From a virus: a stretch of DNA of 64,000 bases. The stretch covers positions 10,241-74,240 of IMG/VR virus record IMGVR_UViG_3300029822_000004; one strand, given 5' to 3'. Numbering within the stretch: position 1 is the stretch's first letter; the number at the start of each line of letters is the position of its first letter. Made by a program: the position numbers and the translations under genes. Below the pieces are notes generated by a model. It searched no databases. It worked only from the letters and a program-made list of their open reading frames with translations, and was not told where the DNA came from. Positions 62,654 to 64,000 of this stretch are shown here, in pieces.

Positions 62654-63177
62654 CCACCATTGAAATCGAAAAATTGACCGACGAACACTTGCTGAAACGC
62701 GTCATCCATCACGTCTTTGGGGCCTATTCGACTACTACGCTGGAAAAATGGTACCAATCACAGCACTCGCCCATCCGCACCCAGCTCTTTGCCATCTTTA
62801 TCACGGATTTGCGGTACTCGGTGGCCATGCAGCTACGAACCCATGAAAAAAATGGTGCGCTTATCCTCATTGAGCCAGGCCGTCCCGATACTGGCACCAA
62901 ACGCTGTAAAGAAGCCATGCACAGCGACGACTACAGAGGCCAGAAACGCAACGCCTTCGTCCTCTGCAATGCCCAACACCTGATAGATTGGAGCCACAAA
63001 CGACTCTGCAACAAGGCCGAATCACACACCGTTGAGTTCTTTGGACAGTTGAGGGATGCCGTAGCTGGTGTGGATGCTTCCTTGGCCGCTCAAATGGTGC
63101 CTATGTGTGTCTATCGCAATGGCATGTGTAGTGAGTTGCGACCTTGTGGACTGATGGAGGGGGTAATGGAGGGGTAA
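62650..63177 (+). CDS. ThyX-like flavin-dependent thymidylate synthase (short, divergent)
   Basis: HSPIR, VAMQLRTH, NAQHLI...RLCNKA, VPMCVYRNGMCSE. Confidence 0.65.
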   Translation: MTTIEIEKLTDEHLLKRVIHHVFGAYSTTTLEKWYQSQHSPIRTQLFAIFITDLRYSVAMQLRTHEKNGALILIEPGRPDTGTKRCKEAMHSDDYRGQKRNAFVLCNAQHLIDWSHKRLCNKAESHTVEFFGQLRDAVAGVDASLAAQMVPMCVYRNGMCSELRPCGLMEGVMEG

Positions 63178-63231
63178 TTTTGTTAGAAGATATTTGAGAT
63201 ACGGTATATTTTTGACTAGATGCTGAAAAAG

Positions 63232-63271
63232 AAAGACCACCAGAGCCGATTATGACTTTGGTGGTCTTTTT
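63232..63271. terminator. Probable bidirectional terminator
   Basis: AAAGACCACCAGAG...CTTTGGTGGTCTTTTT between convergent units. Confidence 0.75.
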
Positions 63272-63349
63272 GATTGAATGTGCCAGCCAGGTTAGGTCTG
63301 ATTGCCCCTTTTTGGAACTTTTCTCCGGTTAAAGAGAACTGACACAAAT

Positions 63350-63438
63350 TGGTGCCCCTCCGTGGAATTGAACCACCCGACAGCCTCATCACAATTTCTA
63401 GTCAATGGATTTACAGTCCACCGTGATGATAGAGAGGC
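63350..63438 (-). tRNA. Atypical tRNA-Tyr(GTA)-like RNA without D-arm
   Basis: Acceptor GCCTCTC/GAGGGGC plus ACCA; anticodon arm GTGGA-CTGTAAA-TCCAT; T-arm GTGG-TTCAATT-CCAC; extra helix TCATCAC/GTGATGA. Confidence 0.6.
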
Positions 63439-63452
63439 CAAGACTAGATAAA

Positions 63453-63529
63453 TAGTAGCGGGGATGGGATTTGAACCCACGACCTACAGAATATGAATCT
63501 GCCGGGCTACCTGACTGCCCTACCCCGCA
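63453..63529 (-). tRNA. tRNA-Met(CAT), initiator-like acceptor
   Basis: Cloverleaf TGCGGGG..GGGCAGTCAGGTAGCCC..GCAGA-TTCATAT-TCTGT..GTGGGTTCAAATCCCAT-CCCCGCT-ACTA. Confidence 0.85.
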
Positions 63530-63699
63530 AAAGCAAGTGGTCTGGAATTTAGGCTTACTTGTAGAGGCCCCAGACCCGTGTATCCATATAATAACACACA
63601 AAAGAGAAAAAGCAAAGTAGAGAGAAAGAAAAAGAGGACAGAGAGGAACAAAACAAAGATAAAGAGACAGTAAAGGGGCGGTAAAGGGGCAAGAGGGGC

Positions 63700-63815
63700 G
63701 ATAAGAGAGGGATAAGAGAGGGATAAGAGAGGGATAAGAGAGGGATAAGAGAGGGATAAGAGAGGGATAAGAGAGGGATAAGAGAGGGATAAGAGAGGGA
63801 TAAGAGAGGGATAAG
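63700..63815. repeat. Tandem repeat of GATAAGAGAGG, 10 perfect copies plus a partial
   Basis: Exact 11-bp periodicity from 63700 in a purine-rich non-coding tract. Confidence 0.95.
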
Positions 63816-63918
63816 GGGTGGAATAATGTTAGGAGATAAAAATTAGGATGAGCGTGAAGGGGACTCTTACAAGGCCATACATTCATCATTAGCCGATCTG
63901 GTGCTGGTCTACTGCGAC

Positions 63919-63951
63919 AAAAAACCCCACCAGTTTCCTAGACCGGCGGGG
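63919..63951 (-). terminator. Rho-independent terminator (minus strand)
   Basis: CCCCGCCGGTCTAGGAAACTGGTGGGG followed by TTTTTT. Confidence 0.6.
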
Positions 63952-64000
63952 CGATTGTGACAGATTTATTTTTTCGGAATTGAAATTAGTGGCTTTTGAC

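Follow-up and report, generated by a model that had tools for sequence, protein, structure and literature searches.

We report that a tRNA-like element in viral DNA is probably a phage tRNA-Tyr (anticodon GUA) that works in translation and belongs to a conserved, horizontally spreading class of tRNAs with a re-wired core, a reading that rests on comparison of its sequence with those of its homologues. The element lies on the minus strand at positions 63350-63438 of a stretch of 64,000 nucleotides (nt), here referred to as the window, which corresponds to bases 10241-74240 of the 74,240-base IMG/VR record IMGVR_UViG_3300029822_000004, a record rated complete by CheckV. No D hairpin is present; the strand found in its place pairs with a strand beyond the anticodon arm, the latter lies within the loop of a second short helix, and viral as well as cellular homologues show compensatory changes in both helices.

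A tRNA-like element lacking the D hairpin

The minus-strand sequence of 63350-63438, read directly from the window, matches exactly that given in the original prediction, which had described a tRNA-Tyr-like RNA without a D-arm but with an intact acceptor stem, encoded CCA, T-loop and Tyr anticodon loop, and the sequence agrees on each of these. The canonical tRNA parts present are the acceptor stem, a 7-nt anticodon loop with U33 and a T arm with a TTCNANN loop. A D-arm hairpin could not be formed, there being just 9 nt between the 8-bp acceptor stem and the anticodon stem, and positions 63423-63429 are perfectly complementary to 63386-63392 (7/7 pairs). This 7-bp extra helix was the core of the prediction; it is perfect in the window and six of its pairs are conserved and covary, while the outermost pair (T10-A in the window) is present in only 6/50 homologues. 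The drawing otherwise needed revision: the acceptor stem has 8 pairs (including two U-G pairs in the window), the T stem has 4, and a second helix between 63401-63404 and 63378-63381 had been missed. The predicted parts are as follows, all on the minus strand.

63350-63438, minus strand: the whole putative re-wired tRNA-Tyr(GUA) gene, 89 nt, with G1 at 63438 and the encoded CCA at 63350-63352
63431-63438, minus strand: 5' strand of the acceptor stem, 8 nt, pairing with 63354-63361; all 8 pairs covary in homologues
63423-63429, minus strand: strand A, in the place of the D-arm, pairing with A' (63386-63392) and leading via G17 (63422) into the anticodon stem
63405-63421, minus strand: anticodon arm, 5-bp stem and 7-nt loop, with the anticodon GTA at 63412-63414
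63401-63404, minus strand: strand B, 5' strand of a short helix at the variable-arm position, pairing with B' (63378-63381)
63393-63400, minus strand: A/U-rich segment, 6-10 nt and A/U-rich also in homologues, which would connect B to A'
63386-63392, minus strand: strand A', inside the loop closed by B-B'
63384-63385, minus strand: GG right after A', invariant in 50/50 viral copies; proposed equivalent of the D-loop G18-G19, with a presumed role in docking
63378-63381, minus strand: strand B', 3' strand of the variable-arm-like helix (B/B' is TGAC/GTCG in the window)
63362-63376, minus strand: T arm, 4-bp stem (GTGG/CCAC in the window) and loop TTCAATT
63353-63361, minus strand: 3' strand of the acceptor stem (63354-63361) and discriminator A73 (63353); A73 in 101/102 members with the anticodon GUA

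The identity set of bacterial tRNA-Tyr includes G34-U35-A36, A73 and G1-C72, and the element carries all of these. It also has every trait by which we define the family described below, i.e. an 8/4 split between acceptor and T stem, an A-A' helix of at least 6 bp, a B-B' helix around A', the GG, and a match to the covariance model R1.

Standard tools overlook the element. ARAGORN, run over the 64-kb window, made no call at 63350-63438 and Rfam gave no match over the element at gathering score, in keeping with the prediction that tRNA finders would report a pseudogene or nothing. Its best sub-threshold Rfam match was tRNA-Sec (selenocysteine tRNA, RF01852) with 23.6 bits (cut-off 47), and the general tRNA model RF00005 gave 20.9 bits (cut-off 29). 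Among the family, ARAGORN called 1/51 viral copies and 0/68 cellular copies. Single-sequence folding of the 89 nt returned the structure as originally drawn with a minimum free energy of -28.4 kcal/mol (z = -1.37), which is no better than shuffled sequences (18/200 shuffles fold at least as well), and the case therefore rests on the homologues.

Covariation supports two interlocked helices

Homologues were collected by scanning viral contigs with a pattern consisting of the anticodon loop and the T-loop motif, 28-42 nt apart, a distance too large for a normal tRNA-Tyr. The scan gave 114 stretches with 70 matches that passed an acceptor-pairing filter; 54 of these were distinct and four were dropped as chance matches, leaving 50. 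The covariance model R1 was built from these 50 viral sequences without the extra helix of the original drawing, and when applied to 92 loci it gave 66 matches at 60-100 bits, with the next best at 41 bits. The window copy scored 77.4 bits (L001:1511-1599), having itself been among the 50 model-building sequences. A scan of representative prokaryotic genomes yielded 83 stretches, 64 of which hold 68 R1 matches of 60-89 bits.

The members share one order of parts. From 5' to 3' this is an 8-pair acceptor stem, 1 nt (U in 80/116 members), a mostly unpaired U, strand A (6 nt), a purine (G in 97/116), the 5-bp anticodon stem with its 7-nt loop, strand B (3-6 nt), the connector (6-10 nt), strand A', U or A, GG, 1-3 nt, strand B', 1-2 nt, the 4-bp T stem with its loop, the acceptor 3' strand, the discriminator and often CCA, the last being encoded in 44/57 viral copies and 9/59 cellular copies.

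In the MAFFT alignment of the 50 viral copies 90.1% of the cells were paired, compared with 66.0% after shuffling (reached in 0/500 shuffles) and 45-55% when the partners were slid. The cellular set, an independent replicate, gave 96.2% versus 80.4% (0/500) and 44-62% for slid partners. For the A-A' helix, 97.8% pairing was observed over 63 distinct cellular rows with four of the six pairs changed on both sides, and among the 50 viral copies the six inner pairs form in almost every case, and double changes are frequent; for example, pair 13-57 is CG in 22, UA in 14, AU in 6, GC in 5 and UG in 2 copies, and pair 15-54 is AU in 31, GC in 11, UA in 5 and CG in 2. When partners were swapped among copies, complementarity at all six positions was seen in 249/2218 combinations versus 42/49 for a copy's own partner. 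The eighth acceptor pair (8-87) is formed in 50/50 viral copies (GC 40, AU 5, UG 4, UA 1) and holds in the cellular set. The anticodon stem is 100% paired in the viral copies, with 4/5 pairs changed on both sides, while in their T stem the two inner pairs are invariant and the outermost is often U-U.

Strand B' is mis-registered in both the MAFFT and the model-based alignments, where two subgroups lie one linker nt apart; the alignment rows consequently understate B-B' pairing and this helix was parsed directly. A copy's own partner gave at least 4 bp in 46/49 copies versus 746/2150 for swapped partners. The strand types covary (GCC/GGC, GAC/GTC, GGC/GCC, GTC/GAC, ACC/GGT, GCGC/GCGC and others), and 57 distinct B/B' combinations occur among the 116 members. 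Since A' is located between B and B' and A outside them, A-A' and B-B' together make up a pseudoknot whose first loop contains the anticodon arm. The GG that follows A' is invariant in the 50 viral copies although no search pattern required it. Unaided, RNAalifold recovered the acceptor, A-A', anticodon and T helices; it also offered an alternative in which the pairs 16-36 and 17-35 extend the anticodon stem to 7 bp and replace B-B', which we rejected because 16-36 shows no two-sided change and G36 changes to A together with its B' partner.

Homologues with the same topology and with covariation in the extra helix, the check proposed with the original prediction, were thus found among viral and cellular copies. 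With more than 100 distinct homologues and compensatory changes in every helix, its arguments that simple decay is unlikely and that the element represents a distinct tRNA-like class have held up; the class is conserved and the extra helix is a selected feature.

Occurrence in phages and in Planctomycetota

Most members lie in dense tRNA arrays. The cellular copies are found in long accessory arrays with up to 39 tRNA genes in an 8-kb locus, and of the positive cellular loci for which titles were shown 51/61 are from Planctomycetota, e.g. Schlesneria, Thalassoglobus, Bremerella and Bythopirellula (the phylum was looked up for Schlesneria; the other three we take to be members). Within the phylum the distribution is sporadic: R1 matches were present in at least 6 of 151 genomes sampled evenly from Planctomycetota (starting genome included, strict filters). 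The idea that the element is simply the housekeeping tRNA-Tyr of Planctomycetota was rejected, since in Schlesneria sp. T3-172 a canonical tRNA-Tyr of 82 nt is encoded separately from the re-wired copy, within a Thr-Tyr-Gly-Thr cluster. In the complete genome of this strain 33 of the 83 RF00005 matches, with low scores, are packed into 826.3-830.8 kb, and the re-wired copy sits inside this array.

The closest relative of the window copy (L088) is 99% identical, with a single difference that turns an acceptor U-G pair into U-A; the next closest is 75% identical, and apart from L088 the window copy is about 67-75% identical to other members. A blastn search with the window element and a typical member (L025) against 50,697 phage records gave no match, and a 301-nt query matched these records at its tRNA-Met part alone. 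The contig of locus L118, from a metagenome-assembled genome assigned to Melioribacteraceae, and that of the viral locus L017 are both 177,804 nt and carry the same element; the former is probably a large phage that was mis-binned.

An architecture restricted to Tyr was also rejected. Descriptor scans gave members with the anticodons GCA (4; cellular arrays L120, L129, L145 and L168), UAU (4) and UCU (4), the UAU and UCU copies being in the viral loci L211, L212, L239, L252, L223, L224, L226 and L236, and further UCU and UAU copies below the filter were recognised by eye. Two descriptor matches, L133 and L103, were judged false. Viral scans for G34 combined with a non-U35 gave no member among 6 stretches, and those for GUB anticodons gave 0 stretches.

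Contigs assembled from RNA libraries help to delimit the unit. A 274-nt contig from a biogas metatranscriptome (depth 119) matches 63353-63438, i.e. G1 to A73, with one difference and unrelated flanks: the 3' end of another tRNA upstream and no CCA downstream. That the match ends at G1 and A73 indicates that the conserved unit is the tRNA body. A 198-nt contig from a digester metatranscriptome bridges the 3' part of a neighbouring tRNA-Met, the element and its trailer (63279-63476). These contigs give at most a weak hint of transcription.

Tyr is the isotype missing from tRNA arrays

The arrays themselves point to a decoding function. Among the 51 viral loci, 14 have ARAGORN tRNAs for at least 14 amino acids, and Tyr is missing in 13 of these, compared with at most three for any other amino acid; likewise, 24 of the 64 cellular loci reach at least 14 amino acids and in 23 of them Tyr is missing. 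In one phage locus 19 amino acids are served by 27 canonical tRNAs and the element lies between Asp and Ser; in another phage record Gly and Cys, absent from the locus itself, are supplied by a second cluster, so that Tyr alone lacks a canonical tRNA. A pattern check of five whole viral records revealed no other UGUAAA match in the right anticodon register, most rows being judged by eye and four loci being examined with ARAGORN.

The discriminator follows the anticodon: it is A73 in 101/102 GUA members, U73 in 4/4 GCA members and A73 in 4/4 UAU members, while the four UCU members have G, A or U. G1-C72 is present in 102/116 members, covering all anticodon types. U73 is a determinant for cysteinyl-tRNA synthetase (CysRS), and the pairings of anticodon and discriminator seen here agree with the established identity rules of the synthetases, a pattern not readily accounted for if the RNA were never charged. 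The occurrence of several anticodons with matching discriminators suggests that the scaffold has been re-used for several identities.

Three viral copies (L005, L012 and L039) have C1-G72 instead of G1-C72 and none of them encodes CCA. C1-G72 together with A73 is the identity pair of archaeal and eukaryotic tRNA-Tyr, and the hosts of these three may be non-bacterial.

Other isotypes are also absent from the ARAGORN calls in the 24 large cellular arrays (Met in 17 and Cys in 12, where 8-kb loci may cut arrays short). ARAGORN further reports 93-95-nt 'tRNA-???' genes with a 4-base anticodon in cellular arrays (within L116-L198, e.g. L130:2993-3087 and L122:4597-4689), and other non-canonical tRNAs may be hidden there. 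In phage arrays there are 90-96-nt tRNAs with the anticodon UAU (L025:960-1051, L021:2788-2877, L029:4695-4786, L061:3090-3184 and others). These ARAGORN tRNA-Ile(UAU) calls were considered as re-wired candidates and rejected, as they have an ordinary cloverleaf plus a long variable arm; such an arm is unusual for tRNA-Ile and recalls the UAU allo-tRNAs described in the main text of Mukai et al. 2017 (PMC5389517). Finally, L028:724-826 (minus strand) is a second re-wired element directly downstream of a Tyr-type copy at 833-924. It scores 41 bits on R1 and has A-A', B-B', the GG and a TTCGATT T loop, with the anticodon arm replaced by a 6-bp stem and a loop of about 17 nt, and it may be a non-decoding derivative.

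Predicted fold and role in translation

In the fold we propose, the 8-bp acceptor stem would stack on the 4-bp T stem and so keep the usual 12 layers for EF-Tu, as expected from the established 7/5 rule and from published 8/4 allo-tRNAs. Strand A, 1-2 nt after the acceptor, would run into the anticodon stem like the 3' strand of a D stem does via residue 26. With A' inside the loop of B-B', which occupies the place of a class II variable arm, the D stem would form as a pseudoknot; A' followed by U-G-G resembles the 5' strand of a 6-bp D stem plus the D-loop guanines, and the elbow could be built by the GG docking on the T loop in the manner of G18-G19. In this view the variable loop would have taken over the D loop together with the 5' half of the D stem, the change being one of chain connectivity. 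The identity set of bacterial tRNA-Tyr also includes a long variable arm presented to the C-terminal domain of tyrosyl-tRNA synthetase (TyrRS); the family has the 3-6-bp B-B' helix at that position, with its loop engaged in the pseudoknot. We infer that the RNA adopts an L shape, is processed by RNase P and matured at its 3' end and, from the array slot and the identity rules, that it is charged by the host TyrRS and used by the ribosome. As to why such a tRNA is kept, our leading guess is that host factors able to recognise or cut the housekeeping tRNA fail to act on one with an altered core.

A wider proposal, to which we would give about even weight, is that the family is the first class to be recognised in which translating tRNAs have a pseudoknotted core. 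In such tRNAs the D stem would be built in trans, with the 5' connector and the variable-arm loop each giving one strand. The scaffold would have spread horizontally among phages and accessory arrays, taking on four identities or more (Tyr, Cys, Ile-AUA and Arg-AGA), and is perhaps kept because its altered body eludes the host factors by which housekeeping tRNAs are recognised, modified or cleaved.

Several observations weigh against a role as a translating tRNA-Tyr. Canonical class II tRNA-Tyr genes are also present in 5/51 viral loci and the Schlesneria genome with an array copy has a canonical tRNA-Tyr as well; the re-wired form is hence redundant in some settings and could there serve another purpose. 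The window phage has just two tRNA genes, and the argument from arrays reaches it via homology. No obvious counterpart is seen for the usual tertiary partners in the D and variable loops (A14, R15-Y48), and in 22/50 copies the outer T-stem pair is non-standard. Moreover, the anticodon loop and the T loop were fixed by the search pattern, so that their invariance is not evidence and the family counts are biased to this subtype. The RNA-library data are assembled contigs, which cannot show ends or prove transcription and may contain DNA; neither their depth figures nor stretches without cover bear on transcription.

Other interpretations

The original prediction offered two possible functions, that of a decoy for anticodon nucleases or synthetases and that of a donor of aminoacyl groups. 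We do not favour these, since the array slot, the discriminator and the 12-layer stack point to decoding. Nucleases directed against tRNA-Tyr are known, and a decoy or sponge would offer its GUA loop to anticodon nucleases or other tRNA-targeting toxins, or titrate the synthetase, without taking part in translation. The intact anticodon loop and acceptor end on a different core are what such a role would call for, and the settings with a canonical tRNA-Tyr alongside the re-wired form (the five viral loci and Schlesneria) would suit it too. However, a decoy would hardly be expected to stand in for the canonical isotype in almost all large arrays (13/14 and 23/24). Nor would it depend on A73, CCA, a 12-layer stack of acceptor and T stems or a discriminator that tracks the anticodon. 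Among the seven neighbouring open reading frames (ORFs) scanned against Pfam, none was seen to encode a nuclease or an inhibitor. Overall we consider a decoy unlikely.

Somewhat less likely again is that the RNA is charged and donates its amino acid outside the ribosome, or is a regulatory tRNA-like RNA, with the odd core serving to avoid EF-Tu and the ribosome. The non-canonical core would fit, and according to the text of PMC5389517 there are irregular 8/4 tRNAs that are charged yet unused in translation. The arguments from the array slot and the identity rules apply here just as they do to a decoy, and the seven ORFs include no recognisable aminoacyl-transferase gene.

We find it improbable, more so than either of the above, that the variable-arm-like helix recruits a synthetase other than TyrRS, such as seryl-tRNA synthetase (SerRS), and that UAY codons are thereby translated into an amino acid other than Tyr, as proposed for allo-tRNAs. 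The members with a Cys anticodon carry U73, the CysRS determinant, which does not fit mischarging. Nor does the B-B' helix, which has just 3-6 bp and a loop tied up in the pseudoknot. The 8/4 geometry and the helix at the variable-arm position are indeed common to the family and the allo-tRNAs, but A73 in 101/102 GUA members stands against G73 or U73 in most allo-tRNAs as described in the main text of PMC5389517. A decayed pseudogene or chance hairpins, for which the z-score of -1.37 and the silence of tRNA finders might speak, can practically be dismissed given the covariation and more than 100 distinct homologues that keep every helix, the two non-canonical ones included. A tRNA-Tyr acting in translation thus remains our preferred reading.

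Comparison with known tRNAs

The element has much in common with the bacterial class II tRNA-Tyr: GUA in a CUGUAAA loop, A73, G1-C72 and a helix between the anticodon and T arms. In some phage loci the re-wired genes adjoin class II tRNA-Tyr genes of the canonical form, whose T loop is likewise TTCAATT. Unlike the element, class II tRNA-Tyr possesses a D hairpin, divides its acceptor and T stems 7/5, closes its variable arm as a stem-loop and is called by ARAGORN and Rfam. Compared with tRNA-Sec (RF01852), the extended acceptor, the 6-bp D-type helix and the extra arm are shared features, whereas the element has GUA instead of UCA, 12 and not 13 acceptor/T layers, no D hairpin, and a score well below the model's cut-off.

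The nearest published relatives are the allo-tRNAs and the phage 8/4 tRNA-Ser and tRNA-His of Mukai et al. 2017 (PMC5389517), who reported 8/4 tRNAs in phages and tested allo-tRNAs in translation in Escherichia coli, where some were active. According to the main text of that paper, they resemble the family in having a 12-layer 8/4 branch, a D-type helix of about 6 bp and a variable-arm helix, and they too occur in phage and metagenomic tRNA clusters and are overlooked by standard finders. The element has the 8/4 split (8/4 or 9/3 in allo-tRNAs) and lacks the D hairpin with a tetraloop and the G73 or U73. Allo-tRNAs keep a long-stemmed D hairpin with a tetraloop and hence a normal cloverleaf, whereas in the family the D-stem strands are split by the anticodon arm; the discriminators, A73 here and G73 or U73 in most allo-tRNAs, differ as well (PMC5389517, main text). 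The main text of PMC5389517 contains no Tyr member and no occurrence of 'pseudoknot', but its 'E-loop' 8/4 tRNAs, compared by text only, may be related to or overlap with the family.

Mitochondrial tRNAs that lack the D-arm, e.g. nematode mitochondrial tRNA-Ser, also have no D hairpin; in the text of a 2020 review of non-canonical tRNAs (PMC7609411) these are short and flexible with an unpaired connector, while the element has a conserved 6-bp helix and is longer than a standard tRNA. Neither 'phage' nor 'pseudoknot' occurs in that text of the review.

Fremin et al. 2023 (PMC10690425) listed IMG/VR candidate RNAs, DNAVirus_1423 (Tyr), DNAVirus_2961 (Arg) and DNAVirus_215 and DNAVirus_8881 (both Cys), which the text terms 'tRNAs or tRNA-like, perhaps non-canonical', with ARAGORN overlap in some copies, resembling the 1/51 viral calls in our family. 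The part of the text that deals with these candidates gives no pseudoknot, 8/4 split or array-slot argument, and on comparison of the texts only they may be the same genes as members of our family.

The cellular copies fit what is described in the main texts of the papers on long, horizontally acquired tRNA arrays, Santamaria-Gomez et al. 2021 (PMC8421152) and Tran et al. 2016 (PMC4758250), in which Planctomycetes are among the phyla and horizontal transfer and links to phages are discussed. No unusual tRNA-Tyr is mentioned in the main text of either. Tyr is, however, among the rarest array isotypes in Tran et al. (PMC4758250, main text), as expected if the re-wired form goes undetected.

A search of the published literature, with the supplements and figures of PMC5389517 and PMC10690425 outside its range, found no tRNA in which the D stem is formed with the variable loop. 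We thus consider the element to be a tRNA with a core topology not found in print, set apart from its nearest candidates by their descriptions in main texts.

To our knowledge, almost all tRNAs outside mitochondria are cloverleaves that include a D hairpin. If the proposed fold is correct, a D stem built as a pseudoknot would be a new solution to the L shape, and the family would test what RNase P, the CCA-adding enzyme, synthetases, EF-Tu and the ribosome truly require. Because ARAGORN and Rfam miss these genes, the tRNA sets of phages and arrays appear to be without Tyr and in some arrays without Cys, which distorts studies of codon usage and tRNA complements. A structurally distinct isoacceptor would also be a natural candidate for evading tRNA-targeting defences and, as a scaffold, a candidate for orthogonal use in genetic-code engineering.

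Genomic context

The genes near the tRNA unit, as judged by Pfam matches of seven neighbouring ORFs, include those for a DUF3310 protein, a large terminase and a Gp13-like major capsid protein, and they indicate a tailed phage. Public runs that hold parts of the window derive from wastewater, digester, biogas and aquatic metagenomes. Two further features belong to the surroundings of the element.

63455-63529, minus strand: canonical tRNA-Met(CAT), 16 nt upstream of the element, called by ARAGORN and with 62.4 bits in Rfam
63225-63269, minus strand: terminator-like hairpin with a run of U after it (63215-63349 folds at -44.4 kcal/mol, z = -5.26)

The tRNA-Met is the sole tRNA called by ARAGORN in the 64-kb window and the sole Rfam match at gathering score. 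Its first acceptor pair is marked as non-standard by cmscan and CCA is not encoded. It probably shares one transcription unit with the re-wired tRNA-Tyr, and the hairpin at 63225-63269 is probably the end of that unit. A pattern-based terminator scan of 63100-64000 called two other sites and none at 63225-63269, and a promoter scan of the same region found none.

The trailer between the CCA end and the terminator (63279-63346, minus strand) folds as a compact multi-hairpin domain, and a related contig in run X1 joins 63272 to 63348 without these 75 nt, i.e. there is an indel among relatives. Just upstream of the tRNA-Met/tRNA-Tyr unit, 63691-63815 consists of an 11-nt unit repeated 11.3 times in tandem with 98% identity. 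An ORF of 163 amino acids (63398-63889, minus strand) crosses this repeat and both tRNAs and is probably spurious.

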